Notes: generated by a model from the sequence alone, not told the origin. 32,000 nucleotides of DNA from Nitrosopumilus sp. (GCA_029864335.1 JAOTTS010000002.1:84671-116670), one strand, 5' to 3'; shown: positions 6,402 through 25,945, counted from the stretch's first letter. Numbers and translations are program-made.

Positions 6402-8594
6402 ATGGTGAAATTCAAGTCAACAGGGGAAGTTCTAAAAATTATCAAGAACAAAGACCAAATCCGTAACTTTGGTGTCATTGCTCACGTTGACCATGGAAAG
6501 ACTACAATGAGTGATAGCCTTTTGGCAAACTCTGGAATTATTGCACCATCTGCTGCTGGAAAAGCTTTGGCAATGGACTTTGACAAAGAAGAACAAGCAA
6601 GAGGAATTACAATTTATCAAGCAAACGTTACTTTACACTTTACAAAAAATGATAAAGAATATGTTATAAACATGATTGATACGCCTGGACACGTAGATTT
6701 TAGTGGAAGGGTAATTCGAAGCCTTAGGGCAATTGATGGTGCAGTAGTAGTTTGTGATGCCGTCGAAGGTATTATGACTCAAACAGAAACTGTAACTAGA
6801 ATGGCTCTGGAAGAACGTGTAAAACCAGTTTTGTTTATCAATAAAGTTGATAGACTCATCAAAGAACTAAGATTAACTCCTGAAAAAATGCAGCAACAAT
6901 TAGCAGATGTCGTATCTAACTTTAATCAATTAATTGACACATATGCAGAACCAGAATACAAAGAAAAATGGAAAGTATCAATTCAGGATGCTAGCGTAAC
7001 ATTTGGCTCTGCAAAGGATAGATGGGCAATTAATCTTGATTTGATGAAAGAGCGAGGAATTTCATTTAAAGATGTGATTGATGCATATCAGAATGAAAAA
7101 GTTGATGAACTTGTAGAAAAGGCACCTCTAGCTGATGCAGTACTTGGAATGGTTGTAAAACATCATCCTGCACCACATGAAGCAGTGAAATATAGAATTC
7201 CACAAATTTGGAAAGGTGATTTAGATTCAGATGTTGGAAAAGCATTACTTGCATGTAGTGATGATGGTCCAACAATCATGATGATTGTAAACATGGTATT
7301 AGATCCAGCAGCAGGACCTGTAGCAATTGGTAGACTCTTTTCTGGTAAAATTAAAGACGGACAAACAATTAACATTATTGATTCAAAAAGAGAGGGACGT
7401 GTACAATCTGTCAATTTCTTTATGGGAAACCAAAGAGAACAAGTAGGCGAACTTGGGGCTGGAAATATTCCTGCATTACTTGGATTAACCGAAGCAAGAG
7501 CAGGGAACACATTATCTTCAGTTAAAGGCATTCCAATGTTTGAAGGCGTTCACTATGTTTCAGAACCTGTTGTTCAAATTGCAATAGAACCAAAACATCC
7601 TAAAGACTTACCCAAACTTGTTGAAATTCTCAAACAATTAACCATTGAGGATCCAAACCTTATTGTAAAAATTGATGAGGAAAGTGGCGAAACAATTGTT
7701 GCCGGAATGGGCGTTTTACATCTTGATGTTGCAACTCATAGAATCCAAGATGCAAAATGTGAAATTATAACATCTGAGCCTTTGATTAACTATAGGGAAA
7801 CAGTAAAGGGAGGATGTGAACCAATTATGGCAAAATCTCCAAACAGACACAATAAAATTTTCATGAAAGTAGAACCACTAGAGCCTGAAATCGCTCACAT
7901 GCTAAGAACTGGAGAAATCAGTGATATGAAAGACAAGAAGATTGTTGCAGAACTACTAAAGAAAGCTGGATGGGATACTGATACAATTAAGAGAGTTATG
8001 AAATTTGATTCTCGTGGCAATGTTTTGATTAACGGAACAAAAGGCGTGCAGTTTGTACAAGAATCAACTGATTCTATAAATTCTGGATTTGAAGAAGTCA
8101 TGAAAGAAGGACCTCTATGTAAAGAACAGATGAGGGATTGCAAGTTTATCTTTACTCACTTTGTACCCCATGAAGATACGGCACACAGAGGACTCTCTCA
8201 ACTAGGCCCTGCTTCTAGAAGAGCATGTATGGGTGCTTTGTTAACTGCAGGAACTGCTGTTTTAGAACCAACTTTGGCTATCGAGGTTCGTGTTCCTACT
8301 GATTTGGTTGGAAATGTTGCAACTGTTCTTTCTGGGAAGAGAGGTAAAGTTCTTGACATGTCTCAAAAAGGTGCCTCAAGTATCATTACAGGTGAGATTC
8401 CAGCTTCTGAGACATTCACACTATCTGAAGAGATGAGAGGCCAAACAGCAGGACGCGCAACATGGAATACTTCCTTTAAGGAATGGACCGAAGTTCCAAA
8501 ATCCATGTTAGGGCCAGCAGTAGCTGAGATTAGAAAGAGAAAAGGATTGGCACCAGACCCACCAGGTATTAACGAGTTTATCGACAAAGAGTAA
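6402..8594 (+). CDS. fusA: translation elongation factor aEF-2
   Basis: It has G1 AHVDHGKTT, G3 DTPGHVDF, G4 NKVDR and the domain IV loop HEDTAHRG (diphthamide His context). It is 730 aa long. Confidence 0.97.
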   Translation: MVKFKSTGEVLKIIKNKDQIRNFGVIAHVDHGKTTMSDSLLANSGIIAPSAAGKALAMDFDKEEQARGITIYQANVTLHFTKNDKEYVINMIDTPGHVDFSGRVIRSLRAIDGAVVVCDAVEGIMTQTETVTRMALEERVKPVLFINKVDRLIKELRLTPEKMQQQLADVVSNFNQLIDTYAEPEYKEKWKVSIQDASVTFGSAKDRWAINLDLMKERGISFKDVIDAYQNEKVDELVEKAPLADAVLGMVVKHHPAPHEAVKYRIPQIWKGDLDSDVGKALLACSDDGPTIMMIVNMVLDPAAGPVAIGRLFSGKIKDGQTINIIDSKREGRVQSVNFFMGNQREQVGELGAGNIPALLGLTEARAGNTLSSVKGIPMFEGVHYVSEPVVQIAIEPKHPKDLPKLVEILKQLTIEDPNLIVKIDEESGETIVAGMGVLHLDVATHRIQDAKCEIITSEPLINYRETVKGGCEPIMAKSPNRHNKIFMKVEPLEPEIAHMLRTGEISDMKDKKIVAELLKKAGWDTDTIKRVMKFDSRGNVLINGTKGVQFVQESTDSINSGFEEVMKEGPLCKEQMRDCKFIFTHFVPHEDTAHRGLSQLGPASRRACMGALLTAGTAVLEPTLAIEVRVPTDLVGNVATVLSGKRGKVLDMSQKGASSIITGEIPASETFTLSEEMRGQTAGRATWNTSFKEWTEVPKSMLGPAVAEIRKRKGLAPDPPGINEFIDKE

Positions 8595-8676
8595 AAAGGG
8601 AGAGCCCCCCTCGCAGGCGTAAATTTGTGTCGCTTTTAGAATGGACTAGGTAAGTACGTAGGTTATGATTTGTTAG
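8565..8676 (+). repeat. aEF-2 3'-end/downstream repeat, copy 1 (native copy)
   Basis: tttatcgacaaagagtaaaaag (8577-8598) and the following ~77 nt recur at 22065-22162 (-), 24729-~24800 (+) and 25872-25931 (-). Confidence 0.9.
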
Positions 8677-9409
8677 AGAATAAATTAGAATATGTTTTAA
8701 TAAAATTCAATCCAATAATTCTTTTCTTTTGAAATGAATCAGATTTTATTTCGTTTGAAATATCATCCTTTTCCTTTGAGAATTCATCACGGAGTTTTTT
8801 TACATCTGGACTCTCCTTTCCTTGATTAATTTGAAATTGATAATAAGTATGAAGAAATCCATAAAAAATACTTGTTGTAGTAATTCTTTCTAAATATGCT
8901 AAAGCCTTTGTTTGTTTTGTGTTTGGAGTAACGTACAGCGTAGGATTGTGATATCGCATATGAAAGGAATCTTTTTTAATTTCATTAAGAAATTGGAAGT
9001 TTTTTAAAATACTAGAGTTTTTCATTTTAGCAGAGTCATAATCTTTTGTAAATGGTTTGTAACCCAATTTAGCCATATTATTCTTAGTAAAATTATAGAA
9101 TTCAGGACCTATCTTAGACATTCTTTCTGTTGAATCTATGTATGGCCCTTGTAATTTTCTTGTATGTGTTTTGGATTTTGAAAGTTTGTTCCATTCTTTT
9201 TTAGTTAAAATTTCATTGTTGATTATTTTTTCTAAAACTAATTTCATTTTAGATAATTCTTCATGTGCTAAAACACTTAACGATAATGCAATTGGATATT
9301 TATTATTATTATAAAGAATTTCACTTGCTTCTAATAAGGATTGAATGTGTTCTTTACAAACTTTAAGATCATTATGAAGATTTCTAGGATTATCTTTTTG
9401 ATTATTCAA
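8663..9409 (-). CDS. hypothetical protein, AbiV/HEPN-like helical N-terminus (tentative)
   Basis: This 248-aa ORF has LLEASEILYNNNKYPIALSLSVLAHEELSKMKLV followed by KTHTRKL. That resembles the AbiV-family pattern (A..L..g.y..A..La.lA.EE.gK ... H..K). It starts 9 nt downstream of the PolB remnant on the same strand. Confidence 0.4.
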   Translation of the reverse strand: MNNQKDNPRNLHNDLKVCKEHIQSLLEASEILYNNNKYPIALSLSVLAHEELSKMKLVLEKIINNEILTKKEWNKLSKSKTHTRKLQGPYIDSTERMSKIGPEFYNFTKNNMAKLGYKPFTKDYDSAKMKNSSILKNFQFLNEIKKDSFHMRYHNPTLYVTPNTKQTKALAYLERITTTSIFYGFLHTYYQFQINQGKESPDVKKLRDEFSKEKDDISNEIKSDSFQKKRIIGLNFIKTYSNLFSNKS

Positions 9410-9418
9410 TTTTTTAAA

Positions 9419-10237
9419 TTAAATTGATGCTTTATTAAAATGATTTAAAGACAAAGGCAACGATTCATTCATAATTTTATCCTCAATAGATTTGATTTTA
9501 CCCATCCACAACCGCTTTCTATCTCCATTCAAATTAACTTCCTTGGTTTTTGGTTTTATTATGCCAACATCTGAAATTTTATTCTGAATAATTGCTTGTA
9601 TTAGTGACTGACTCTTTTTTTCAATGAATTTTATGAATAATCTCCCTCTTCGCTCTACTGTATCTAGATGCTCGATATCTTTTTTCTTTAATTTGCCTAG
9701 ACCGCGTTGCTTCCATGAACCATTAAATCTGTAAAATCCATTTTGGAGATAATACACATCATCTGCACTTTTCTCAAATGAAAACTCGCCTAGAGTGGTA
9801 GAATTTACGCCTAAATACTTAGTAGTGCACACAGAATCTGTAGCAAAGGCCACCACATCTTTTTCAATATCATGTTTACGCACAAAATTATACAGTTGAG
9901 CACGACAAAAGCCAGTGATAAAGGCAAAAATCACAGGATTAAACAAATTTCCAATTTCATGATTCACACTTTGTCCTGTCTTACCATATATGGAATTCAG
10001 AATTATCTTAATTGGTAACTGTAAAGGATCTTTTCGTTCCTTTAGTTCCATTCTTTTCTGATATAGATTCTGAATAAATTCACGGTATGGATAAATATCA
10101 GAATTTGTAATGAACTGGTATCCTTCAAGAATCCTGTAGAAGGTTGTTCTTTCGCAGGCTTGAAGTTCTTGCAATATGACGTATGTTTCAAATTCTTCTG
10201 ATGAATTCGGAGACCAAGTGTAACAATGTGAATACAT
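9419..10237 (-). pseudogene. 5'-truncated protein-primed family-B DNA polymerase (palm/thumb part only)
   Basis: KIILNSIYGKTGQ is motif B (KxxxNSxYG). VVAFATDSV is motif C (DTDS with the first Asp replaced by Ala). LGEFSFEKSADDVYYLQNGFY resembles the phi29-type KxY region. The ORF begins around where motif A should be, with stops immediately upstream. The exonuclease domain and motif A are absent. Confidence 0.8.
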
Positions 10238-10278
10238 AACTAATAAAGCCTAATTTTATTTATGGATGATTGTAAAAA

Positions 10279-10818
10279 TTGCATGGACCAGAATTTCTTT
10301 CAAATCCAACGATACCAATTATTTTAATTCTTGGAGCAGGAATTTTTCTCTATCTCAGTGTTAAAAATGGCAATACAGTACGAAGTGTCAGAAAAATTAA
10401 TGGTGCGGAGATATTAGATACAAGCTATGAATGGATCTATTTTACTGGGTTTATAGGACTCATAGCAATCGGGATTCATCTACTTGCAGAATATAATTTG
10501 CATTGGTACGATGTAACTCCAATAGATCGTTTCACTCATGCAATTTCAGGTATGGCAATAACTGCAATTGTTTTGAATTTTAATTTAACAAGTCAGAGAA
10601 AATTCTATTATACTATTGCAATTGCAGCTTCATGGATAGCATTCATAGGGTGGGAACTCTTTGAATCAGTTTTTGTTTATTTGAACCCAGATGGATTTAT
10701 AGAAATTAGCAATTGGGATACTGCAGTAGATCTATGGATTGATTTTCTTGGAGGATTATCAATTTGCTTTTTATGTGATGAACTAACGGAATGGCCTGAA
10801 GAAACTAGACAGAAGTAA
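10279..10818 (+). CDS. polytopic membrane protein, unknown function
   Basis: There are four to five hydrophobic helices (IPIILILGAGIFLYL, IYFTGFIGLIAIGIHLL, AISGMAITAIVLNF, YYTIAIAASWIAFIGW, LWIDFLGGLSICFL). The start is TTG in the track. Confidence 0.6.
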   Translation: MHGPEFLSNPTIPIILILGAGIFLYLSVKNGNTVRSVRKINGAEILDTSYEWIYFTGFIGLIAIGIHLLAEYNLHWYDVTPIDRFTHAISGMAITAIVLNFNLTSQRKFYYTIAIAASWIAFIGWELFESVFVYLNPDGFIEISNWDTAVDLWIDFLGGLSICFLCDELTEWPEETRQK

Positions 10819-11088
10819 AAATACTATGGTTCCTCCTTTTTGGAGAAAAATTTTGGTTTTATTTAGCACAATAAAGATCAAATACCATATTCACGCATTA
10901 AATTACATGAGAAGATTCTGGATTGTTATTCCATGATTTTACATTAACTTTTGATATCAATTATTTTTTAATATTTTAGAAAAATAAAATAGGATTATGG
11001 ATTCATCTGTATTTTTAATAACACAATACATAACTTGATATCATGAGCTAACAAGCTACAAGAAATAAGACCATGGGTCATAATAACT

Positions 11089-11352
11089 GTGTTTAAAGAA
11101 AACACAAATCCAAATGATCTGCAAAGAATATCTCCACAGATTCAAAATTTAGTAGATGAGTGGCAAACTCAAGGAAAGATGATTTGGTCTGGTGTATTCA
11201 GTGATAATGCCACAAGCATGACAGTCTTTGAGGGAACAGAACAAGAAGCAAATGAATTTTACAACAAATACGACAGAATCTGCTCTGGAATATTGCAATA
11301 TTCAATGTATCAATGGGATGCAATGCCAATCCTCTCAGTCTTATCTAAGTAA
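11089..11352 (+). CDS. hypothetical protein (87 aa)
   Basis: The ORF has a GTG start and protein-like composition. It is the first gene of a same-strand string of mini-ORFs. Confidence 0.5.
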   Translation: MFKENTNPNDLQRISPQIQNLVDEWQTQGKMIWSGVFSDNATSMTVFEGTEQEANEFYNKYDRICSGILQYSMYQWDAMPILSVLSK

Positions 11353-11378
11353 TCTGTAGGAGTTTTCTTTTTTTGAAT

Positions 11379-11501
11379 ATGCTAAAAAACGAATTGTGTA
11401 GAATTTGTGGTTGTGAAATACGTGAATACAAAAAATGCTCAGAATACCATCTGATTATCTCTACCGTATGCAAGTGCTGTGAGAACATACAAGAAATTTA
11501 A
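11379..11501 (+). CDS. Cys-rich Zn-ribbon mini-protein (40 aa)
   Basis: Hand translation gives MLKNELCRICGCEIREYKKCSEYHLIISTVCKCCENIQEI. Confidence 0.4.
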   Translation: MLKNELCRICGCEIREYKKCSEYHLIISTVCKCCENIQEI

Positions 11502-11610
11502 ATACATCACTATGAAGTAAAATGAATAATTTCCAAACATAAAACAAGATGTTAGATTAGTAACATGAAATTATGACGCTGTTTTAATTTCTGTATGGTT
11601 AAAACAAATC

Positions 11611-11736
11611 ATGCCTCTTGGAGTATCTGTCAGATATTGTAGTGATTGTGGCAAAGTCTTTTCTTATTATGTTATAAAAAATTCAAAATTGTGCTCAAAT
11701 TGTAGAAATCTGCCTGTATCACGCCATACAAAATGA
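11611..11736 (+). CDS. Zn-ribbon mini-protein (41 aa)
   Basis: Hand translation gives MPLGVSVRYCSDCGKVFSYYVIKNSKLCSNCRNLPVSRHTK. Its stop overlaps the next ATG (ATGA). Confidence 0.45.
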   Translation: MPLGVSVRYCSDCGKVFSYYVIKNSKLCSNCRNLPVSRHTK

Positions 11737-11905
11737 CTTGCCGAGGAATTTGTGAACGGTACAGGTCAGAGAAGAACGGGTATTCGGATAATGCTAAAAG
11801 ATGTACCTCTTGTAACGTATACCTGTTGTATGGAGGGATAAATGTTCATGCTGTAACTCTCATCTAAGATTCAAACGTAAAGCCAAGTTTCACAATTCAA
11901 ACTAG
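11733..11905 (+). pseudogene. four-Cys Zn-ribbon gene split by a frameshift
   Basis: Frame 0 reads MTCRGICERYRSEKNGYSDNAKRCTSCNVYLLYGGINVHAVTLI*. The second knuckle, KCSCCNSHLRFKRKAKFHNSN*, continues in another frame from about nt 11839, and that frame has no start codon of its own. Confidence 0.5.
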
Positions 11906-12084
11906 ATGGTAAAAATTGCTAGTGGTTTTTTCCAGTTTGGCTTCAGAATAGGCTTGAACTTGTACCAGAACGCATCCAAGATAAATGTAAGAGATCGTTT
12001 CTTGCAAAATCTGCCAAAAAATCTTCAAGAATTATTAACTATGATCAAATCTTCCATCTGCATCAAAATTGCATGGATTCCATC

Positions 12085-12225
12085 TTAAAAGCAATTGAAA
12101 TGAAATCGTTCAATTGGTTTGTAGTAACATTTAGAACAAATGTTCTGAACTGTATCTTTACATTGTGCACAAATAGTATATTCTGTAAGCATGTTACCAC
12201 ATTTTCTGCAGCTCTCATCAGGCAT
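12085..12225 (-). CDS. Zn-ribbon mini-protein (46 aa), translationally coupled to the upstream Roadblock-like gene
   Basis: Hand translation gives MPDESCRKCGNMLTEYTICAQCKDTVQNICSKCYYKPIERFHFNCF. Its ATG overlaps the stop of 12225..12662 (TAATG). Confidence 0.5.
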   Translation of the reverse strand: MPDESCRKCGNMLTEYTICAQCKDTVQNICSKCYYKPIERFHFNCF

Positions 12226-12662
12226 TATATCACCTTTGTACTAACATAACTCAAACAAAAACTTGAAATCAAAGAAAATAATTTATCCGATACTTGTTTA
12301 ATATCTATATCTGCTTTTGATATAACCAACAATATTTCATCATCTAAGGGATAGACAAATTCTACAAGTGATTTTCTCAGCGTTACTGTATTTCTAAAGA
12401 AACTTAATTTGTTATCAAATTCCTTTATCATTGTTGTTTGCAATGTACGTTGCATCGATATCATTTCTAATTCCTGAACAGAAATATGATTCAAATTTTC
12501 ATTGTTGTTAAATTTACTATCTATAATTCTACCATTTTTATTTACTATTGCTACCAGATTGATATCCTTATTTATCAAACAAATAATCTTGCATAATTCT
12601 GATCTTTCTGATGCCCGTTTAAGAGAATTGGTTATCATATTTATATCTCCATATTGAAGCAT
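12225..12662 (-). CDS. small Roadblock/LC7-like protein, paralog 2
   Basis: It has INLVAIVNKNGRIIDS and later FRNTVTLRKSLVEFVYPLDDEILLVISKAD, the same layout as the other three paralogs. Confidence 0.65.
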   Translation of the reverse strand: MLQYGDINMITNSLKRASERSELCKIICLINKDINLVAIVNKNGRIIDSKFNNNENLNHISVQELEMISMQRTLQTTMIKEFDNKLSFFRNTVTLRKSLVEFVYPLDDEILLVISKADIDIKQVSDKLFSLISSFCLSYVSTKVI

Positions 12663-12838
12663 TTATGTATCCTGTTAACATTATTAACAAAGTTAACTCT
12701 TGATATTTCACCACATCAAACAATATTCATTGGACCTCATTATGATTACAAACATTTCTTGAGGAATTGGCTCGTTGTGATTGTACAATGCGACTCATCA
12801 TCCAATAGTATCCAATCGCCATGTCTTGAGAAAGGAAA

Positions 12839-13018
12839 TTAATCCTCATGGATTAATACCTCGTCATCTGAGAATATCCAGGATAGACCTCTTATATCTT
12901 CCCAAGAAAATTTGGAAGATTCTGCTTGCATAGAAGATTTCGTCGTTTCTTCTACAGGATTGCTTTCAATCTGAGTTTTCAAGTATGGATGTTCACTCTC
13001 AATAATATTTTGATTCAT
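12839..13018 (-). CDS. acidic hypothetical mini-protein (59 aa)
   Basis: Hand translation gives MNQNIIESEHPYLKTQIESNPVEETTKSSMQAESSKFSWEDIRGLSWIFSDDEVLIHED. It is one codon below the track threshold. Confidence 0.3.
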   Translation of the reverse strand: MNQNIIESEHPYLKTQIESNPVEETTKSSMQAESSKFSWEDIRGLSWIFSDDEVLIHED

Positions 13019-13805
13019 GCTTCTGATTAGGCATGTTTTTTATATCAACACATCATTCCTATTGCGGCATGCCTGATTTTTCATTTATTATATATAGAGG
13101 GATTATCATGTACGCTGATTTGTTAACACAAAAAAATTCTAATATGTAGAATAGTATTGTTTGAAATAGATTTTTAATTATTATTCTTTTTCTAAAAACT
13201 TTTAATTTTACACCTTGAACCTTAAGGCCAAAAACGGCAGTACTTTGGCGACAGATTCAACACTTACCAGTCTTACAAAATAGTATTTACATGACACTGA
13301 TGATTGATTCGTGATAGTTTTAAATAAATTTTGTAAAACAAAACAATGAATGGTTCTAACTTTGAGCACTCACATTTCTCGACGTTAAAGTGTGGTTGTA
13401 CAATTAATACAATTTCAGGAGAATTATTTCAAGAATGTATCCCTCACCAACAAGCAAATTTTACAAAGTAGCGATTTAATTTTAACTGTAATTCTTCTTT
13501 TTGTTTTTTCCATACATTTTCATTTTAAAACTAAAATTCTGCAAAATTATATTGCTATTTGCACTGATTGGTTTAGTTAATCATTTCACCATGTCTAAAA
13601 TTTCACAAAGGATTGAGTTTGTCTATCGGACATACCGTGATCATCTTATGAAACCATACATACATAAGAACCCCTGGATGATGCCCTAGAAGTATATATC
13701 TGCCTCTAACTCACTTTCAACCTTCTGTGAATTTATACACAGAATCATGTCATGAACTTAGATGTTAAATATAATTGAACTTTTTCTGTACTCTACTTTT
13801 TCATA

Positions 13806-15062
13806 TCATAAACAGATTTTTCTTATACCATAAATTACAACAGATGGTGCAACAAAGTACATCCCAATATTCAATATAATCACACCAATTCCATATCCTA
13901 AGACCTCTTCATCAGAGTCCATATCAACATAATTTAGAACAGATAGGGAAGTGATCAATGGAGTCAATATTATTTTGACAGTTTCCTTGAAAATTGGATT
14001 TTCACGCTCATAGTCTGCTATAACTGGGCTAAATAAGTAGTAAAAACTATTGAATGATTGCATAAATGCGGATCCTGGTTCTGTTTTCAACAAGTGTTCA
14101 TCTCTTAGCTCCCTAAGTTGTTGTACTTGGGGAGCAAGCTCAGAGGCAAATGTTGCAGTGGCAATAAGGCAACCACCTCCCTCTGACGAATCTTGAATTG
14201 GTTCTTTTTGTTCCTCGTCTATTTTAATTTCCTCTTGAATTGGTTCTTTTTGTTCCTCGTCTATTTTAATTTCCTCTTGAATTGGTTCTTTTTGTTGTGT
14301 AGATTCAGACGCCTTTATCTGATGTTCAAGTTTTCCAATTAATCCCTTTACTTGACGAATTTTTTCAGAATCATACCCTAAACTCAGTAGTCTTTCTTCA
14401 AACTCATCTTCTGAAATTATTCCTTCCTTAAACTGGTTAATAATAATATCATCAGGATCTTGGAGTTTTTGTTCTTGGAAATATGTTTCCTCATGTACTG
14501 TAAAAATCAAGGTTTTTTTTATATCGTAAACTTTTGAGTGCTGTATGCCCCACCCGAATTTTATTTTATATTCACCAGGGGGTTGGTTTTTATCAATGCA
14601 TACGTTGCCATATCTTTGAATTGTTTTTTCATTAATTTTAAGATCACAAACAGACTCCATCCCGCCATCAATTACGATTGGTTTGGGATTTGTTTTTCCA
14701 AATAATGTAAAAGTTATTGTCTTAGATTCAAGCTTGTCTCCATTTACTTCCTCAAATGAATATAATACAACACAGTTTTCACCTGCACAGTTATGTGGCA
14801 CATTACTTCCAAATGCAGACAAAAATGGTAAATAAACAAAAAATTCTATTCTTGGATCAATATTTTTTGGTACAGATGGTATGTCTGTAACCTCAATTTC
14901 AATATGGGTTCCAGGCTGACCGGATGTAGGACTTATTGTTATTGTAGGCATGCCAAGTCCTATTGCAGTCGAATCAAAATCTGATTGACCATAGGTATCT
15001 GAAAAGTTTGAAAACGAAGATAAAAAAACCAATAAAAAGATAATAAAGAAATTTTTTAACAA
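13806..15062 (-). CDS. secreted protein with a C-terminal GGGCLIATATF...APQVQQLR membrane-anchored domain (CFI-box-like)
   Basis: There is an N-terminal signal peptide (FFIIFLLVFLSSFSNFS), an ectodomain of about 250 aa and an acidic repeat linker. The conserved C-terminal domain GGGCLIATATFASELAPQVQQLRELRDEHLL...FYYLFSPVIADYERENP carries two hydrophobic helices. Confidence 0.8.
   Translation of the reverse strand: MLKNFFIIFLLVFLSSFSNFSDTYGQSDFDSTAIGLGMPTITISPTSGQPGTHIEIEVTDIPSVPKNIDPRIEFFVYLPFLSAFGSNVPHNCAGENCVVLYSFEEVNGDKLESKTITFTLFGKTNPKPIVIDGGMESVCDLKINEKTIQRYGNVCIDKNQPPGEYKIKFGWGIQHSKVYDIKKTLIFTVHEETYFQEQKLQDPDDIIINQFKEGIISEDEFEERLLSLGYDSEKIRQVKGLIGKLEHQIKASESTQQKEPIQEEIKIDEEQKEPIQEEIKIDEEQKEPIQDSSEGGGCLIATATFASELAPQVQQLRELRDEHLLKTEPGSAFMQSFNSFYYLFSPVIADYERENPIFKETVKIILTPLITSLSVLNYVDMDSDEEVLGYGIGVIILNIGMYFVAPSVVIYGIRKICL
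14191..14296. repeat. perfect 42-bp in-frame tandem repeat, 2.5 copies
   Basis: The unit tcttgaattggttctttttgttcctcgtctattttaatttcc occurs at 14191-14232 and 14233-14274, with a 22-nt partial third copy. It encodes (EPIQEEIKIDEEQK)n in the 418-aa protein. Confidence 0.9.
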
Positions 15063-15288
15063 GTTATTGACTTCTTGAGTTTTGTTTATATTTAACTCTC
15101 ATTAAAGTTTTCGTTTCCTACAGCACAAATCGTAGCACACCGTTCTGAAGTAAAAATATTTTTGAATTTTATTTATTGCTGGATATATAAGAGAACATGA
15201 TAGAAATACTCTGGACAAAAATCTTATGTCCGTAATGAATAGTCATAATCATAATTTTAAAATAAAAAAATTGAGGGTTTTTATTTTA

Positions 15289-15579
15289 TTAATATTTCAA
15301 TTTCAAACTTTTCATCAAATTTTGAAATCTCTCAAGTTCTTCAAAAAATGATCTGCCCTTTTCTGTCAAAATAAAAAGTCTATTTTTTTCATCTGTAGTC
15401 TTTTTCATTAATTCTGCCTCGATTAATTTGTTACATTTATCTACAGCAGCATAATGTGACAGATTGGCCTTCCGCGATATCGCGGATATAATTATACCAT
15501 TTTGTCCCTCCTCACGTGTGACGGTGAGAATATCACTTAAGATGCCCATTTCAGACCTATATGTGCACTTTAAACTCAT
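15289..15579 (-). CDS. winged-helix DNA-binding protein (putative transcription regulator)
   Basis: This 96-aa ORF has ILSDILTVT...IIISAISRKANLSHYAAVDKCNKLIEAELM...RLFILTEKG, a typical wHTH layout. It is divergent from the histidine kinase gene. Confidence 0.65.
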   Translation of the reverse strand: MSLKCTYRSEMGILSDILTVTREEGQNGIIISAISRKANLSHYAAVDKCNKLIEAELMKKTTDEKNRLFILTEKGRSFFEELERFQNLMKSLKLKY

Positions 15580-15671
15580 TATGATTGATTTTCATCTTTT
15601 GTTATAATACAATTCTTTTAACTTTGCGGGGTGCTTTTCACTTAAATTATGACTTTATTTCAAACTAATAG

Positions 15672-17549: not shown

Positions 17550-17592
17550 AAGATCCAATAAATACATAAACCTCTTAATATATTAAGAAAAC

Positions 17593-17964
17593 TTGCCTTC
17601 TACTGGACTAATTCTAATTGTTGATGATGATTTACCTTTACTGGAAAATACTGCCTACATGATTGAAACATTAGGATATGAAGTGATAACTGCAAAGGAT
17701 GGGATTGAAGCCGTTGAAGTATACAAAGCTGCACATCCAGCCCTTACACTAATGGACATAAAGATGCCTAAACTAGATGGCTATGGTGCATTTTTCAAAA
17801 TCAAAGAATTTGATTCTAATGCAAAAATTGTTTTAATTACTGCATATACATTAGATGAGAAAAAACATCTAAAGGCACAAAGCATGTCGCTTTTAGACAC
17901 TATTGAAAAACCATACGACATAGAGCGTCTTGAGAAAATTATATGTAAATTTGTGGATTTATAA
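17593..17964 (+). CDS. single-domain response regulator (CheY-like receiver)
   Basis: It has LIVDDD, the phospho-acceptor context LTLMDIKMPKLDG, and VLITAY. There is no output domain. Confidence 0.85.
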   Translation: MPSTGLILIVDDDLPLLENTAYMIETLGYEVITAKDGIEAVEVYKAAHPALTLMDIKMPKLDGYGAFFKIKEFDSNAKIVLITAYTLDEKKHLKAQSMSLLDTIEKPYDIERLEKIICKFVDL

Positions 17965-18813
17965 TTTTTTTATCTTTTTTACCATGTTAAATCTATTTTC
18001 ATAAAAAGCAGTCACCTCATCAAGAAAGTTTTGATACCATTCTCGTAATTCTTTATCTTTTTTTGTAAATAGTTTTTGCCATTGATCATATTCAACAGAT
18101 GATTTTTTATTTGAAGTGGGAATTAAAAGCTGAGTGAAATACCAACATGAAATTTGCTCTGCTAGATCTTCCTCCGCCATATGCTCAAAGTAATCTAGGT
18201 ATTTTGATGACAGATAATTCAATATCTCATAAACGGGTAACTTGGAAACCTTGATTGTATGTATGTTATCTAGAAATAATCCTTTTGCAAGTACTCTAAT
18301 TCGATATACATCATTTCCAATTACAGACTTTAAATAATCCCATTTGCCAAAAACCCAAGGAAGAATAAGGGCATATTTTTCTGCCATCCTATCAATTTCT
18401 CTGTTTGTAAGATCTAACACATCTAAACAATATAGCACTCCATTCACTGAAAGACGATAAATATTGGCAGATCCTCTCAGGTTACTTTTACCGTCTATGA
18501 CAACCAGACCAACTTCAAGAATTCCAGGAGAAAATTTTCCTCTGTCTTTTCTTCCCACCAAAAGCTTCCGGTATTGTTTTTCCTTGGCCCTAACTTTTGA
18601 TGTATCATTTACTAAATCTACTTTTGCCATTCCCCATGTAGTAAGCGACCCATTTGTAGCTAAAATATGGAGCATTCTCTGAATATTTTCATGGTGTTTG
18701 GGAATACTTTTTTTCCTATAAGAGAATTCACCGTATAGCCTCCTTGCTGTTGGACGTGTATACACCTTGTAAGCATAAAGATTACCCATAGTTCCAGTTT
18801 TTGTAAATGTCAA
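17959..18813 (-). CDS. hypothetical protein (284 aa), possible N-terminal wHTH
   Basis: A long ORF with an ATG start. The segment NIQRMLHILATNGSLTTWGMAK looks HTH-like. Nothing else was recognised. Confidence 0.6.
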   Translation of the reverse strand: MTFTKTGTMGNLYAYKVYTRPTARRLYGEFSYRKKSIPKHHENIQRMLHILATNGSLTTWGMAKVDLVNDTSKVRAKEKQYRKLLVGRKDRGKFSPGILEVGLVVIDGKSNLRGSANIYRLSVNGVLYCLDVLDLTNREIDRMAEKYALILPWVFGKWDYLKSVIGNDVYRIRVLAKGLFLDNIHTIKVSKLPVYEILNYLSSKYLDYFEHMAEEDLAEQISCWYFTQLLIPTSNKKSSVEYDQWQKLFTKKDKELREWYQNFLDEVTAFYENRFNMVKKIKKL

Positions 18814-18945
18814 TCTAGATCTCAGAAAGTTTTATACTATAATACCTTTAAACATAATTTCTATTTTATTTAGGTAGCAAACAACATAGATACTATGAAA
18901 CATTAAAAAAATAATTTTGCATTTTTTACAATTTTTTAAACTAAA

Positions 18946-19041
18946 TTCCACGTGGGTCCACTAATTACCCTCTAAACTATATCCCCCGTACAACGTGCAT
19001 GGGGATATAGTTAGATGGATGGTTTCTGGACCCACGTGGAA
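18946..19041. promoter_or_regulatory. nested perfect inverted repeats carrying two CCACGTGG palindromes
   Basis: The outer arms are ttccacgtgggtcca (18946-18960) and tggacccacgtggaa (19027-19041), a perfect 15 bp match. The inner hairpin is ctatatcccc (18977-18986) and ggggatatag (19001-19010) with a 14-nt loop. It sits in the divergent intergenic region, 47 nt upstream of the FMN reductase start. Confidence 0.6.
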
Positions 19042-19087
19042 CTCTGAAAAAATATAACCAAGTTCAATTGATTTTGCACAAGAGAAG

Positions 19088-19672
19088 ATGAGTCTAAAAA
19101 TATTAGGTGTAGCATCCAGTATGCGAGAAACGTCCTACAGCACGCAAGTTCTAAAACTAGCACTAGAAAAAGCAGAGAAGAATGGCGCAGAAACAAGAAT
19201 GTTGGATTTACGAGAATTACAATTACCCATGTATCATCCCGAACAAAACAATTCACCAGAACTTGACAAAGTTACAGAGCATGTAAAATGGGCAGATGCA
19301 TTTATTCTGGCATCTCCGGATTATCATGGTTCCATGTCAGGAGTAATGAAAAACTTTTTGGATTTTTTCTGGTCTGATTTTGCAGGAAAAACCTTTGGTT
19401 ACATCTGTGCATCACATGAAAAAGGCCTTACAGTCATGGACCAGATAAGAACAGCAGTAAGACAATGTTATGGATGGAGTATGCCCTATGGTGTATCTGT
19501 AAACTCTGACCAAGACTTTGACAAACAAGGTAACATAACCAACGAAAATATCATCCCCCGTATCGAAACACTTGGCAGGGACTTGACTGCGTATGGAAGT
19601 CTGATCACAGAACAATACAAAAAAGATCTGCAAAGTGAAGAGTCCAATACATTTGCTGCTCGTTATCGATGA
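19088..19672 (+). CDS. NAD(P)H-dependent FMN reductase family oxidoreductase
   Basis: It has the flavodoxin-like N-terminus KILGVASSMRETSYSTQVLKLALE, plus DAFILASPDYHGSMSGVMKNFLD, typical of the FMN_red family. Confidence 0.8.
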   Translation: MSLKILGVASSMRETSYSTQVLKLALEKAEKNGAETRMLDLRELQLPMYHPEQNNSPELDKVTEHVKWADAFILASPDYHGSMSGVMKNFLDFFWSDFAGKTFGYICASHEKGLTVMDQIRTAVRQCYGWSMPYGVSVNSDQDFDKQGNITNENIIPRIETLGRDLTAYGSLITEQYKKDLQSEESNTFAARYR

Positions 19673-19709
19673 AAAATTAATTATAAACATACGATTCCAA
19701 GTTTATCAC

Positions 19710-19991
19710 ATGCGCAAGGAATTTGTAATAAAAAGAATTGATGCATCGCCTGATGGTTCACCTTACGTGATAATCTCATTAACCTCTTCAAAAGATTTTC
19801 AAGAGGGAAACAAACCTCAATCCCAATTTGATCCTTCAAAAATGATGGACCCTGCCAAAATGGGAGACATGGCAAAAGATCTAAACAAGATGCTTTTAGG
19901 TATGGGAGGAATGATGTCTGGAGGAACATCATTAAAGCTTGACATGCATGAATACAAAGAGGTGAATCTTTCTGTAGGGGACATGCTGTAA
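19710..19991 (+). CDS. hypothetical protein (93 aa from the internal ATG)
   Basis: MRKEFVIKRIDASPDGSPYVIISL...KLDMHEYKEVNLSVGDML has natural composition and A/T third positions. It conflicts with the antisense ORF 19681..20196, whose overlapping part is Cys/Leu-rich and looks non-coding. Confidence 0.45.
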   Translation: MRKEFVIKRIDASPDGSPYVIISLTSSKDFQEGNKPQSQFDPSKMMDPAKMGDMAKDLNKMLLGMGGMMSGGTSLKLDMHEYKEVNLSVGDML

Positions 19992-20374
19992 ATGTAATTG
20001 GCTCATTGATTTGATATGAGATGTCCACATCCAAATCCCCTTTTGTTCCACTGACCATCTGTTTTTCGGGAATTGTGGTGTCTGAATATTCAGTAGTGCT
20101 CTGGTTTGTTAAAAGACCAAAAAACATTATTCCTACAGCAGTACTTGATGCAATAGATACAAACATCACATGTTTAATTTCCCTTTTTCTTCTCAATCAA
20201 CTCCAATAATTATCAAAAGTCTAGTTTTCATTTTTTCTCCCAATTTAACTATCTAACCCACGAATACCCTCTAGGCTCAGGAGTGCAAGAAGATACACAT
20301 GCATAGTTTTCTGGAGCATTAGGGGAAATAATACGGGGGTCTACACATCACATCAGTTAAAGACCAAATACATA

Positions 20375-20581
20375 ATGTCTTCACATGATTTTGCTGCAGG
20401 CAACATCGGAATTAATTCAGGACAGGCAAGATTCCTCAATATTGTGTATGGCCCAGGTCAAGGATATGGAAACTATGTTGATTTTCAATATGACCCATCA
20501 AAAGAATATGCTCTTTTAATTGATGAGCCATTTGGAAGTGTAGAAATTCCACTTGAACTAACTAGTAAAATCCTGCATTGA
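20375..20581 (+). CDS. hypothetical protein (68 aa)
   Basis: An ATG ORF with protein-like composition. No motif. Confidence 0.4.
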   Translation: MSSHDFAAGNIGINSGQARFLNIVYGPGQGYGNYVDFQYDPSKEYALLIDEPFGSVEIPLELTSKILH

Positions 20582-20848
20582 AGGATTTTTTATTTTTCCA
20601 AACTGATTTGCGCACTGGTCTTATTTTGAGATACACTATTGCAATTACTGGTATATTGATAGGATGTACCAAACATGTTATCAAATAATTATTACTATTT
20701 ACAAATGAAGATGCAATACGACAAAAAGGCTGTCTCTCTTGAAAGTTCCTTACAAGTCACCTTGAGGATCATTCGTCCCGACAGAGATTCAACGCCAATA
20801 AAATGATACGTCCTTACATAACACAATGCTTGCAATGTCCAATGGTTT

Positions 20849-21296
20849 TTATTCTGATTCATATGTGGTTTTTGGATTTTTTAGATTTTGCTGGTAATAG
20901 TCTTCAATATTCATCAGTATGTCCAGATAACCCTTCTTTGTCCAAGATTTGCTTTCCTGATCAAAGGAATATCCTTGCTGCATAATCTCTGACTGGCGTT
21001 TAATTACAAGACCGTCAATGAATTTAGCACATTTCTCATCAACTGTTTTTCCACTCATTATTTCATCCATTGTGTTTTGTAAACATTCGGGGCCAAGTTT
21101 TTTGCTATGGTCTTCATGACAATATCCTGTATGAGTGATTAAGTTGTCAAAATAGTCAAGAAGGATTTGAGAATTTACATTTCTTACACAGGGAAAGTAA
21201 GGAAATTCCCAAGGGGTTGTTGATTGCTCCCGCAACTTCAGTCAAAACGGGATTTTCGGTTAACTCGTGGCATCCATCACATAATCCAATCATCAT
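20849..21296 (-). pseudogene. Zn-ribbon-containing gene apparently split by a frameshift
   Basis: The ATG ORF 21296->21156 reads MMIGLCDGCHELTENPVLTEVAGAINNPLGISLLSLCKKCKFSNPS* (two CxxC pairs). It overlaps out of frame with the 128-aa track ORF (20849..21235), which has only a TTG start and reads coding-like from SQILLDYFDN onward. Confidence 0.4.
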
Positions 21297-21482
21297 AATT
21301 CAATACAAAATAAAAGGAAATAAGCTCTACTAAGCTATTGTACTAAAAATTAAACTCACTTGATTTTTCATTTTTGAAGTCTATCTAGATGGATTCTGTA
21401 CCATTTAGAAAATGTTTTGGCACATTTACACCTAATAATCAATATAATTCTTAGATTTGTTTTTGTAATTGATTCAGTCTTT

Positions 21483-21935
21483 CTAGTTGTTTACGATTGG
21501 GTTCTCATATTTTACAATTGGTTCTGATGGAATCATAGCTGATGTAAAATTTATTTTTGTTGGCAAATCCTCTAGTGCTTTTATCACTGTACTGCGTTTT
21601 ACTGGTTTTTTTAGGTGTGAGTATAATCCTTCCTTTTTCCATTCGTCTAATTCAATGTTGTTAAAATCAACAGATGAAAACAAAAAAACATTTGTTTTTT
21701 CGAACACATGATTTTCTTGAAGAAGGGTCAAAATTTGCTTTCCATCAAAATCATCTAATGGTGCGTCAACAAAAACTGCATTATATGATTCATTTTTAAG
21801 ATGTTCTACTCCTTCTTTGAATGTAGTTTCAGTAGTAACAAAAAAGCCTTTTACCCGTAATATTTTTGCAAATACACTCACAAGTGCAGGATTGTCATCA
21901 ATGATTAAAATTCTCATGATTTGGGTATTGGACAT
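21483..21935 (-). CDS. single-domain response regulator (receiver) with a short C-terminal extension
   Basis: It has RILIIDDNPALVSVFAKIL and AVFVDAPLDDFDG, a receiver fold pattern. It is 150 aa long. Confidence 0.75.
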   Translation of the reverse strand: MSNTQIMRILIIDDNPALVSVFAKILRVKGFFVTTETTFKEGVEHLKNESYNAVFVDAPLDDFDGKQILTLLQENHVFEKTNVFLFSSVDFNNIELDEWKKEGLYSHLKKPVKRSTVIKALEDLPTKINFTSAMIPSEPIVKYENPIVNN

Positions 21936-22064
21936 TTAAATTTTTGATTCATTTTTATTATTTAATTAGTTCTACTCTTTTCTACGTCTTTTTGTTTAGG
22001 AATTTATTTAAATCCATTTTTCCATATTACATTACTATGTGAATATTGATGATAAACACTTTCC

Positions 22065-22174
22065 AACAAATCATAGCCTAAGTAATTACCTAGTCAATTC
22101 TAAAAGCGACACAAATTTACGCCTAAGAGCCGGGCTTTCCCTTTTTATTCTTTGTCGATAAAAATAAAAATCCC
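22065..22174 (-). repeat. aEF-2 3'-end/downstream repeat, copy 2 (inverted)
   Basis: The reverse complement of 22065-22162 aligns without gaps to 8577-8674, with about 88/98 identical by my count and a perfect 26-nt block. Further in, it reads ...GIFIFIDKE* against the native ...GINEFIDKE*. Confidence 0.9.
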
Positions 22175-22284
22175 CCATGTTAGGTATGAATTTCTGACGC
22201 TTCTCGTAAAGTTTAAGATTTGAAAATGAATCTAGACAAGGTAGACAAAAAAAGAATAGTGTGTACAGAATTATCAGGAAATGG

Positions 22285-23357: not shown

Positions 23358-23534
23358 TAATTACAATCCAACCTAGTCTATTTTTAAGAATTTGGGTAAT
23401 TCTCACTATGTTTAGCAATAGATATACGGTTCTTTGTGGAAAGATTCTAGAACAAGACGGTTGATGGTGGGTTTGTCTAGCTGAAAAGCATTATTATCAA
23501 GTAGAATGAGTTTAAAATCTTCTAATTGCAACAA

Positions 23535-23960: not shown

Positions 23961-24322
23961 TATTTCTTGATTCTGAATTGCAACAAGGGACAGATAACCA
24001 TCTTGTGTTGTTTTTTGTATTTTTGTGCCAAAATCTCCTTACGGTCAATAAATGACTCACATTTGAAAATGACACTAGAATCACCACTCCCATCTATTTC
24101 AGTAAAATCAAAACTAGATGACTGTAGTGCACCTGACCATTGAGTGTCAGAAAACATCAATAGTTTTGCTTGATTTTCAGGTATCTTTGATTTTAATTCT
24201 GCCTAAATTATTTTCTCATTTGTTGTGATTTGGTTTGTGTATTCTCTTGAGAGAAAAGTTGGTTAGAAGAAAGGGCGTAAATTAACAATATGCTTAAGTT
24301 CGTAATTGTTGCAGAAAAGTAA

Positions 24323-24580
24323 TTGAAAATAACTGAAATTAATGTAGATGATAGTCAAACTGGATATTATTGGCTACAAATTTTTGTAAAGAACCAAAAA
24401 GAAGCATTTTCATTAAGAAGACAGATATTCGAAGACCAAGATATCAGAGAAAGACTGCATGTAGCCATAAAACAAAGCCAAGAAACAGTAACTAACTCTT
24501 CAATTGAATTGGAAATAATACTGCACAACATGATCATAGAAAAACTTGGATTAATCCTTGATGGAAAAAAAGAGATTTAG
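24323..24580 (+). CDS. hypothetical protein (85 aa)
   Basis: The ORF has a TTG start and plausible composition. No motif. Confidence 0.35.
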   Translation: MKITEINVDDSQTGYYWLQIFVKNQKEAFSLRRQIFEDQDIRERLHVAIKQSQETVTNSSIELEIILHNMIIEKLGLILDGKKEI

Positions 24581-24728
24581 ATTCTAAACTCTTTGTTTTC
24601 CCATACAATACTCTTCTAAATTCTGAATCACAATCTTAGATATGGCAATTTCCTGAACTGACTTTAATCCTTCTTTGGTTTTCTTTCCATGTTTAAACTC
24701 ATACTTTTTTTCTTGTTGAAACTGTCTT

Positions 24729-24800
24729 TTTGTTGACAAAGAGAAAAAAGGGAAAGCCCGGCTCTTCCAAGCGTGGAAATACGATATAATTTAGATTATG
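24729..24800 (+). repeat. aEF-2 3'-end/downstream repeat, copy 3 (direct, degenerate)
   Basis: tttgttgacaaagagaaaaaagggaaagcccggctctt matches the other copies. The block at 24745-24766 is 22/22 identical to copy 2. The stop codon is lost (reads FVDKEKKG). The distal part matches only weakly (gcgtggaaat, ttagatt). Confidence 0.8.
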
Positions 24801-24912
24801 ATCTACCTGTCACATAAGTAATATACAAAATGGATGAAACAACAAGGGAAATGCCAATGATTATTGCTAATTCTTTTCTTGAAAATACACTTGCTCTATA
24901 ACTCACTATCAT
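24796..24912 (-). CDS. single-TM mini-protein (38 aa)
   Basis: Hand translation gives MIVSYRASVFSRKELAIIIGISLVVSSILYITYVTGRS. Confidence 0.3.
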   Translation of the reverse strand: MIVSYRASVFSRKELAIIIGISLVVSSILYITYVTGRS

Positions 24913-24950
24913 GCTGTAAGAATAATGAACTTAAGCATTTTGATAATTAT

Positions 24951-25076
24951 CTATCCTTTCTTATCTTTCTCTAATTCTTCTATTTTCAATTCAAGTTCTT
25001 TTACTTTTTTCCTTAATTCGATATTTTCATCTCTCAATGAATCAATCTCTCTTTGATGTAATTCATTTAGATCCAT
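24951..25076 (-). CDS. coiled-coil mini-protein (41 aa)
   Basis: Hand translation gives MDLNELHQREIDSLRDENIELRKKVKELELKIEELEKDKKG, which has heptad-like spacing. Confidence 0.35.
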   Translation of the reverse strand: MDLNELHQREIDSLRDENIELRKKVKELELKIEELEKDKKG

Positions 25077-25156
25077 AAATTTTCTGCAAGAATTTCAAAT
25101 TTAAGATTGTTGGTGTTAGGAGTTTAATAGTTTTAAAAGAGTTTAATCTAATCATA

Positions 25157-25747
25157 TCATTTTCTGCTTTTCATAATTTTATCAAATGCAATTTTAACTG
25201 AAATGAGCATTTTTTCTGCATATTTTGGTTCATTGGGATTTTTGTCTGGATGCCATTTTAAAATTAAACGTCTGTATGCTTCTTTGATTTGTTTATCTGT
25301 AGAATTCTCCGATACCCCTAACAAACTGTAGTGTATTGCAATGTCTGGTTCTTCAAATGTTTGCTCTGTTTTTTGATAACTTTTTTTGTACTTGTTTTGA
25401 TTTCTCTGCCAAAACTCTCTTTTGAATAGTGATACGATGTATCTCTGATGTGTCTGCGATTCTTCTGTGGAAATGTTTATCCAGTGAGCCTGCTCAAACT
25501 CTTGAATTATTTTATCAAATTCATCATCAGAAATTCTGGATTGGCTTGTTTGAAAAGTTTCTTCTTGTGGAACATAGTCTTGTCGCTCTCTAAATCTTCT
25601 AAAATCACTCTCAAATGATTTTTGCTTTTTTAATCGTCGAATTGCCTGACAATCCCTACAGATAAACTCATCAGAATTTTCTGGGTGAGGCCACAAATCA
25701 ATTCTATCAAATGATCCTTTACAGTCTGAGCATGTGTTCGCCAACAT
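25157..25747 (-). CDS. J-domain protein with an N-terminal Zn ribbon
   Basis: The C-terminal J domain is [42 protein letters not shown], with the HPD motif. The N-terminus has CSDC...CRDC. Confidence 0.85.
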
Positions 25748-25871
25748 TGAGTTTGTTCTTTACTTTTCTTTTTGATGTTTTGTTAATTTTTTCTTTTCAG
25801 ATTTTTTATCAGTTATGGGGTTTGAATTTCGTTTTAACAAATCTTCAGTAAATAATACCATCGTTCTACAT

Positions 25872-25945
25872 TAGTCAATCTGGAAAATTTACGCACAAAA
25901 GGTGGCTGTCTTTTTACTCTTTGTCGATAAAAATGGCATCACATG
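25872..25945 (-). repeat. aEF-2 3'-end/downstream repeat, copy 4 (inverted, shortened)
   Basis: The reverse complement of 25910-25931 is 22/22 identical to 8577-8598. The inner blocks gcgtaaattt and agattgacta are retained. The coding side reads ...IFIDKE*. Confidence 0.85.

Follow-up and report, generated by a model that had tools for sequence, protein, structure and literature searches.

Casposons, transposons that depend on Cas1, are presumed to have given rise to the adaptation modules of CRISPR, and their integration has been reconstituted in vitro. Members of family 1 integrate at the 3' end of ef-2, the gene for the archaeal elongation factor aEF-2 (PMC4046053, PMC6563490), and for Candidatus Nitrosopumilus koreensis this target has been dissected biochemically: it consists of a leader, of which TTT suffices, and then a target-site duplication (TSD) of 13 bp, ATTGATAAAGAGT (PMC8464041). 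Earlier work has already described tandem arrays with a common TSD, solo terminal inverted repeats (TIRs), elements inserted in either orientation and TIRs that overlap the TSD in part (PMC6563490, PMC4779613, PMC4046053). Here we analyse 32,000 nt of DNA from Nitrosopumilus sp. (GCA_029864335.1, JAOTTS010000002.1:84671-116670; this whole stretch is referred to as the window), in which the end of ef-2 recurs downstream of the gene in alternating orientation. It is close to certain that the window contains a decayed array of several family-1 casposons at ef-2, which is a known hot spot in Nitrosopumilus. Two TSDs of this array lie in reverse orientation, for which our favoured explanation, with a probability of roughly 0.55, is that pairs of neighbouring elements were inverted, either by re-insertion or in place.

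The repeated unit at the ef-2 target

A sequence-only reading of this DNA had reported four alternating copies of the ef-2 end plus flank, and all of them were recovered by a repeat search of the window and by a scan with the 22-mer TTTATCGACAAAGAGTAAAAAG, which at up to 3 mismatches has 4 matches in the order + - + - (0.00 expected from 100 shuffles). The repeat search returned the inverted pairs 8577-8677/22062-22162 (101 nt, 89%), 22125-22164/24727-24766 (40 nt, 90%) and 8577-8598/25910-25931, the last being the 22/22 match that had been reported for the fourth copy. Recounting copies 1 and 2 gave 90/101 identical positions, in good agreement with the initial estimate of about 88/98; a perfect block is indeed present between them, but extends over 28 nt (8615-8642) rather than 26, and the 22-nt block common to copies 2 and 3 was confirmed, with 24745-24766 being the reverse complement of 22125-22146 without a mismatch. 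Similarity of copies 1 and 2 ends at TTT: the 30 nt outside the two arms match at 9/30 positions, which is chance level, and the sequence there is the repeat B1 of another casposon, which together rule out the weaker similarity on the coding side (GIFIFIDKE*) as ef-2 coding sequence beyond the TSD.

The identity of the unit becomes clear from the published target. The final aEF-2 codons (..F I D K E) lie within the casposon target together with the stop codon's first base, and the window string formed by TTT, ATCGACAAAGAGT and AAAAAG is the homologue of the N. koreensis target (8577-8592 compared with the NitAR1 target), after which it runs on into the casposon terminal repeat AAAAAGGGAGAGCCCCCC...; the first two A's of this end complete the TAA stop codon of ef-2. 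Every casposon end starts with AAAAA(G/T). Our comparison set comprised 80 related genomes and 1.3 Mb of related loci: a casposon terminal repeat follows ef-2 in many of these genomes and the site is empty in many others, so that insertion polymorphism at ef-2 is present among the relatives. We regard it as close to certain that the repeated unit is a family-1 casposon integration joint made up of TTT leader, 13-bp TSD and terminal repeat. The inverted repeat thus does contain the last ef-2 codons, as had been stated, but as TSD and leader and not as a captured piece of coding sequence; the initial statement that family-1 casposons insert at the 3' end of aEF-2 agrees with the published target (PMC4046053, PMC6563490, PMC8464041), and fragments of PolB and cas1 are present in the window.

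A related observation concerns the biochemically used target itself. At the NitAR1-C1 locus of Ca. N. koreensis (L088 17548-17600) the sequence past the right-hand TSD, AAAAAGGCAGTCCCCCCTCCTTACG..., is a relic casposon end, and the same is seen in L042; the apparent direct repeat of 22 bp at NitAR1-C1 results from this relic end following the TSD, and the natural 'spacer' side of the target employed in the biochemical work is therefore itself old casposon DNA.

Casposon ends and reversed joints in the window

Searching the window with terminal repeats from other genomes located at least seven casposon ends of several types (A1-A4, B1, C1 and D; Table 1), all of which match ends found beside ef-2 elsewhere. 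Only A1 and A2 form a matched pair (90/101, T included), and the initial view of the copies as the terminal inverted repeats of two neighbouring transposon-like units can hence not be upheld. The ends delimit at least four element remnants (8593-22146, 22160-~24730, 24745-25915 and 25929-~27770), and end D is the probable right edge of the array. In a four-way alignment the TSD lies outside the casposon end in all copies and the relative order is constant, while its orientation is forward at J1, reversed at J2, forward again in the degenerate J3 and reversed at J4. Both J2 and J4 are flanked on either side by facing casposon ends: they are complete tandem joints lying backwards. The remnants 8593-22146 and 24745-25915 are accordingly bordered by inverted copies of the TSD, instead of each element having a direct TSD to its left and right. 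At the target, casposon ends and copies of the TSD persist without a complete element, which corresponds to a remnant array (for the concept see PMC4779613). Base composition does not distinguish the island from its flanks.

Table 1. Features of the ef-2 locus, with positions counted from the first letter of the window.
Feature	Position	Strand	Basis
aEF-2 gene, 730 aa	6402..8594	+	Open reading frame (ORF); EF-G/EF-2 Pfam domains for identical protein
Junction J1: leader TTT (8577-8579) + 13-bp unit T = ATCGACAAAGAGT (8580-8592)	8577..8592	+	Homologous to N. koreensis target
Terminal repeat A1 (AAAAAGGGAGAGCCCCCC...ATGATTTGTTAGAGAA)	8593..8677	+	Matches repeats right after ef-2 in L001, L012, L006, L008
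HEPN/AbiV-family gene, cargo of ef-2-proximal remnant	8663..9409	-	Pfam PF18728, 7e-17
Protein-primed PolB fragment, N-terminal part missing	9419..10237	-	PF03175 3e-7; tblastn with L042 PolB 57% identity, 1.5e-91
~11.8 kb of non-casposon genes between A1 and A2	10240..22061	.	Pfam: histidine kinase, two response regulators, FMN reductase, winged helix-turn-helix protein, repeat protein
Terminal repeat A2, partner of A1	22062..22146	-	Inverted-repeat pair with A1
Reversed target-site unit T* = ATCGACAAAGAAT, 12/13 to T; centre of J2 (between A2 and B1)	22147..22159	-	
Terminal repeat B1 (AAAAATAAAAATCCCCCATGTTAGGTATGAATTTCTGACG...)	22160..22225	+	90.6% over 64 nt to both repeats of 3-kb L028 element, E=3e-18
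ORF X, 85 aa, convergent with cas1 fragment	24323..24580	+	
cas1 (casposase) C-terminal fragment, residues 289-330 of 334, abuts T'	24605..24730	-	tblastn with L042 Cas1: 71% identity, 3e-15
Junction J3: TTT + degenerate unit T' = GTTGACAAAGAGA (10/13; unit 24732-24744)	24729..24744	+	
Terminal repeat A3, first 22 nt = A2	24745..24830	+	Orthologous repeat in L159
DnaJ-domain ORF, 196 aa, between A3 and A4	25157..25747	-	PF00226, 9e-15; 90% identical protein in L159
Terminal repeat A4 (AAAAAGACAGCCACC...CCAGATTGACTAA), type differs from A3	25818..25915	-	Resembles L031, L114 repeats
Reversed unit T, 13/13 (22/22 with flanks); centre of J4 (between A4 and C1)	25916..25928	-	
Terminal repeat C1 (AAAAATGGCATC...GTCGTAATGCTTTTCGTTAAGATC), cas1-proximal	25929..26000	+	Subterminal match to L021 repeat; L159 orthologous block 89.9%
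cas1 N-terminal fragment, residues 5-33, reads inward from C1	26387..26473	+	tblastn with L042 Cas1: 72% identity, 5e-8
Terminal repeat D, tip decayed, no recognisable adjoining target-site unit	27678..27770	-	Matches subterminal L015, L008 repeats; by eye like L006, L012

The casposon genes are present as fragments. The PolB of an autonomous family-1 casposon is represented by residues 335-594 alone (the C-terminal 260), and tblastn with the L042 casposase detected no intact cas1 in the window; the casposase of such an element is a Cas1 homologue without a helix-turn-helix domain. The two cas1 stumps are oppositely oriented, and the truncation of the N-terminal stump is also found in the metagenomic relative L159, there beside a DUF6659 gene. 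A Pfam scan of the 20 ORFs between 8.6 and 26.9 kb revealed no integrase, invertase or other recombinase domain. Homologues of ORF X lie ~100 nt after ef-2 on the opposite strand in L028, L035 and L043, and in the window ORF X is inverted relative to ef-2; since cas1 regularly has a convergent gene after it, ORF X may belong to the casposon cargo instead of the host genes. ORF X and its 3' flank were also considered as native ef-2 downstream DNA carrying a reversed TSD, and this was rejected because homology extends no further than 17 nt after the stop codon.

Direct and reversed duplications in related loci

The ordinary layout of a family-1 casposon is seen in L042, where PolB (PF03175, 1e-28) and Cas1 (PF01867, 2e-42) lie intact between two terminal repeats and two identical direct TSDs. 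NitAR1-C1 (L088) has a similar layout, and the order leader-TSD-TIR ... TIR-TSD with direct TSDs is found in L028, L134, L151 and L202 as well; the direct TSDs of L042, L088, L028 and L134 speak against the suggestion that the casposase recognises a TIR-like sequence within aEF-2. We then compared TSD orientation over those loci that have ef-2 and a second good TSD on one contig. Direct TSDs are the commoner state (nine loci: L039, L042, L088, L101, L116, L134, L151, L162 and L202), while a reversed TSD downstream of ef-2 recurs in L021, L197, L156 and L003, with reversed joints amounting to ~1/3 of the informative loci. Reversed and direct TSDs resemble the local ef-2 TSD equally well (the reversed copies match it at 13/13 in J4, L156 and L197 and at 12/13 in J2 and L021). 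When read in the frame of ef-2, the four reversed joints of mixed type all show an AAAAAG-type end, the reversed TSD and an AAAAAT-type end, and so mirror the arrangement that prevails among direct joints (3 of 4): such mirrored flanks fit inversion of the whole joint and not a flip of the 13 bp alone, albeit weakly (Fisher p=0.14). Five further casposase loci from complete genomes provided no new informative TSD pairs.

Two simpler interpretations of these loci were discarded. The two end types cannot represent the two different ends of every element, as NitAR1-C1 and L028 have ends of the same type and L042 has one of each; L003, from the closest species, is not an orthologous reversed joint, its resemblance being limited to 12 nt. 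A separate group of units lies without ef-2 upstream (L129 1422(-), L092 3490(-), L159 3680(-) and L214 19530(-)) and combines an ef-2 leader of 8-9 nt (AACGAGTTT or ACGAATTT) with the TSD and an end of AAAAAG type, three of the four being preceded by ..AAGTGTR. L214 carries a complete casposon with direct TSDs at such a pseudo-leader site, with no ef-2 within 10 kb. These units could be attR of another ef-2-targeting element, could reflect a longer (22-bp) duplication or could belong to an array displaced by a large inversion.

Origin of the alternating arrangement

The casposase cuts with a stagger of 13 bp around ATCGACAAAGAGT after the TTT leader, and repair duplicates the 13 bp on both sides of the insertion. 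As the AAAAA of the casposon end completes TAA at ef-2 and its complement at the far end provides a new TTT leader, each insertion regenerates a usable target and elements pile up. In the history that we propose, two pairs of neighbouring elements, each with an internal TSD, would subsequently have been turned as blocks between forward TSDs, which would convert the array into + - + - according to the scheme L-T-{A1..A2 / rcT* / B1..}-T'-{A3..A4 / rcT / C1..D}. By one route, a pair would be excised at its outermost ends and re-inserted as a composite in random orientation, which is plausible because the family-1 casposase tolerates varied ends and long substrates (PMC8464041); by the other, recombination in place between the outer ends would invert the pair. 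One end, half of PolB and most of cas1 would have been lost to later deletions. We infer the step of block inversion or composite movement, and the sequence of events, from several observations: the + - + - pattern is that of two flipped pairs separated by a forward T', and signals of inversion are provided by the opposed cas1 stumps, by the inverted ORF X and by L159. In L159 the A3-DnaJ block (92.6%) and the C1-g125-cas1 stump-DUF6659 block (89.9%) are joined differently from the window, being in opposite relative orientation with A3 facing C1 across a single TSD and all TSDs direct, which demonstrates that these pieces have been rearranged between lineages. Apart from this, the island has almost nothing in common with the region downstream of ef-2 in the 80 other genomes, and thus the array cannot be reconstructed step by step. 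Of the three readings offered initially, repeated integration followed by inversions fits best.

Several observations weigh against this history. The right end of the second remnant, and with it the right boundary of the first pair, is missing, with the cas1 stump abutting T', and no forward TSD is recognisable after end D, so that the outer boundaries expected for the two flipped pairs are only partly checkable. T', which as part of the composite model should be a recent TSD copy, is the most diverged (10/13), while J4, an internal copy, matches without fault (22/22). Within each supposed pair the outer ends differ in type and have only ~6-15 terminal bases in common, which makes them a poor substrate for homologous recombination. 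An un-flipped version of the same pair was not found in any other contig, the reversed TSD of L003 is not directly followed by a second casposon end, and the two cas1 stumps may derive from two different genes. The statistics, moreover, rest on ~15 informative loci, and to our knowledge casposon excision has never been demonstrated experimentally. A narrower version of the proposed history, in which neighbouring casposons and their TSD were mobilised as one composite or were inverted by the casposase acting on the outermost ends, is on this evidence an unlikely one, if still to be taken seriously.

An alternative that we consider improbable is that only the 13-bp TSD is flipped: facing ends, which in a tandem joint are mutual inverted repeats, would form a hairpin with the TSD in its loop, and a double template switch or recombination between the stems would invert the loop, leaving an otherwise ordinary tandem array. 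Small hairpin-loop inversions are known in plastid DNA. Such flipping would account for the reversed TSDs of the window, L156 and L197 sitting exactly between two facing ends, for reversed and direct TSDs being equally similar to the local one at ef-2, for the differing TSD orientation relative to the orthologous A3/C1 in L159 and the window, and for the high frequency of reversal. However, the stems at J2 and J4 are poor, with only TTTTT/AAAAA being perfect, and in L003 the reversed TSD has no facing end on one side; the mirrored end types around the four reversed mixed joints would be unexpected if the flanks were static (a weak argument, given the Fisher test above), and the inverted ORF X and the opposed cas1 stumps are left unexplained.

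Intramolecular replicative transposition, as performed by IS26 or Mu, appears to us about as doubtful. Here a resident casposon would attack ef-2 in the same molecule and generate an inverted duplicate of itself, with the intervening DNA inverted and the TSDs in reverse complement. Reverse-complement TSDs would thus arise in one step as recent copies of the local target, in keeping with the 22/22 match at J4, and the inversion of intervening host DNA would fit ORF X; A2 and A3 have an identical 22-nt tip in opposite orientation, and casposons encode their own polymerase, a replicative route having been proposed for them (PMC4046053). A single event nevertheless predicts + - - + with two inverted copies of one element, whereas the window shows + - + - with only short end fragments in common, and the unlike types of A3/A4 and of C1/D would require several more events.

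It is very improbable that the TSD forms part of the inverted repeat itself, either because the ef-2 tail is intrinsic to ends of this type (as a mimic of the target or a gene end that was captured) or because the left joint was copied in inverted form when a linear protein-primed replicon underwent fold-back replication or panhandle repair. The constant position of the TSD outside the end in all four copies would agree with this, as would the units of 9 nt ef-2 leader, TSD and AAAAAG-type end away from ef-2 in L129, L092, L159 and L214 and the frequent overlap of TIRs with TSDs (Krupovic 2014, PMC4046053). Direct TSDs are nonetheless found outside the TIR in the intact L042, L088, L028, L134 and L214; past each reversed TSD comes another casposon end and not ef-2 sequence; and integration would leave doubled TSDs, none of which is seen at the four joints of the window. 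The same prediction of doubled TSDs led us to reject an element carrying one TSD along on excision and panhandle copying.

Highly improbable, too, is an actively invertible segment, as had been suggested for 13.6 kb and would here correspond to the 13.4 kb between copies 1 and 2, with the 101-nt arms (89%) as inverted repeats. The fact that assemblies break at copy 1 (L002 ends at 8598, L084 starts at ~8715) could be taken in its favour. Five independent contigs of 99.6-99.98% identity, the contig JAOTWD010000024.1 from a metagenome-assembled genome included, nonetheless all have the same orientation across J2-J4 and maintain the arrangement of the window from 14.3-22.6 kb onward, one of them starting at ~8715 and being collinear with the window to the right flank. 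No inversion isomer was found among these near-identical contigs, which were retrieved through exact-protein look-ups, although a rare isomer could escape assemblies; one isomer in five contigs and the lack of an invertase among the ORFs scanned are not what a programmed invertible segment would display. Strain polymorphism directly behind the 22-mer accounts for the breaks, L001 being an example: this contig is 99.9% identical over window 1-8629, after which another casposon variant follows (PolB with 77% nucleotide identity), which shows that the ef-2 site is polymorphic within one population. L002, likewise 99.9% identical over window 1-8598, stops exactly at the end of the 22-mer. Finally, tyrosine-recombinase att sites or a generic intergenic repeat unrelated to casposons are hardly credible: other mobile elements do use casposon target sites (PMC4779613) and the pseudo-leader units (..AAGTGTRRACGARTTT followed by the TSD) could be attR of a different ef-2-targeting element, but there is no integrase, the orientation is inverted rather than direct, family-1 casposon ends form part of the unit, with remnants of PolB and cas1 next to it, and strong matches among the 1.3 Mb of related loci are located at ef-2 or downstream of it.

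Two observations on contig ends belong beside these comparisons. Assemblies of this population end or begin at or just after the ef-2 target (L002 end at 8598, L084 start at ~8715, JAOTWD010000024.1 start at ~10084, L001 end in PolB), and such repeated breaks in short-read assemblies would fit strains that live side by side with different first casposon remnants. The population occurs in samples of San Francisco Bay type (JGI 3300022226; ENA ERZ27296398). L086 is 99.8% identical to the window except for its first 126 nt, which show no relation to it and meet the rest at window position 21169; this start represents an alternative junction or else the chimeric end of a contig.

Cargo and further observations

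The genes at 10240..22061, which have no homologues within 10 kb of ef-2 in the 80 other genomes, are either cargo or host DNA. Genes of defence type are found in several family-1 casposons or remnants: AbiV/HEPN in the window (8663-9409) and in N. ureiphilus (L213 11016-11660), where the AbiV gene adjoins cas1, a nucleotide cyclase with a PycTM-like effector in N. oxyclinae (L212 11772-12994) and an OLD-family nuclease in N. adriaticus (L089 19331-21014). The zinc-ribbon-like N-terminal part of the DnaJ ORF (25370-25654, -) matches residues 9-114 of the L042 PolB weakly in tblastn (28% identity, E=0.011), and may, if this unconfirmed similarity is genuine, be a remnant of the polymerase/terminal-protein region fused to a J domain. 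Just past the stop of ORF X, in the last codons of the cas1 stump, ACTCTTTGT (24588-24596) corresponds to 9/13 bases of a reversed TSD, probably by chance. Viral contigs yielded no matches to casposase relatives.

Further features lie within the island. Perfect 42-nt tandem repeats (14191-14316) encode EEIKIDEEQKEPIQ inside a 418-aa secreted-type protein (ORF 13806-15062), the C-terminal ~125 residues of which (GGGCLIATATF.SELAPQVQQL...) recur in a 141-aa ORF at 23535-23960 and in L068, L074 and L077; there is no Pfam match. A strong palindrome at 18946-19041, with 41-nt arms (78% complementary) and a 14-nt loop, occupies the divergent intergenic region between the ORF at 17959-18813 and the FMN-reductase gene.

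Comparison with known systems

The locus reveals how the ef-2 hot spot looks once it has been used many times: stacked and decayed elements form a hypervariable island with defence-type and regulatory cargo, which differs even between cells whose upstream 8.6 kb are 99.9% identical. Its reversed joints offer a testable signature that separates composite mobilisation, in-place inversion and hairpin-loop flipping. Should the composite reading be true, a reversed internal TSD would be the fossil of a re-mobilisation and the first genomic evidence of excision and re-insertion of a family-1 casposon, and arrays could move as blocks together with captured host genes; should the reversed joints be rearrangement debris, the locus would illustrate a known phenomenon in an ordinary, though rich, way.

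Target duplications in reverse complement mark intramolecular events, as with IS26, and the window resembles IS26-type intramolecular transposition in having them; it likewise resembles the accumulation of Tn7-type elements at attTn7 in the site-specific stacking of elements into an island. The enzymes are unrelated in both cases, and we know of no demonstration of either mechanism for casposons. Closer parallels are found among the casposons themselves. With the family-1 Nitrosopumilus casposons NitAR1-C1, NitAR2-C1 and NitSJ-C1 (Krupovic 2014, PMC4046053; Wang 2021, PMC8464041) the window has in common the target at the 3' end of ef-2, the homologous 13-bp TSD with TTT leader, terminal repeats of the type AAAAAKNGAANNCCCCCC..., and the protein-primed PolB and compact Cas1, here as fragments only; those described elements are single with direct TSDs, whereas the window has several elements and two reversed TSDs. 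The persistence of isolated ends at the ancestral site after loss of the element body is shared with the solo-TIR remnants of Methanosarcina mazei (PMC4779613), although the remnants of the window belong to family 1, are numerous in one locus and retain TSDs in both orientations. Tandem NitNF5-C1/C2 at ef-2 of Ca. N. adriaticus NF5 (Krupovic 2019, PMC6563490) provides a precedent for one target being reused, with a TSD common to neighbours and some elements inactivated, and the tandem family-2 casposons of Methanosarcina (Krupovic 2016, PMC4779613) similarly reuse one target in arrays separated by a common TSD. Both of these are drawn with direct TSDs, while in the window the TSDs alternate, decay is far more advanced and ~12 kb of non-casposon genes are included. 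Neither reversed internal TSDs nor composite movement were found described in the published casposon work compared here: the kind of element is known, and the reversed-joint arrangement is structurally new.

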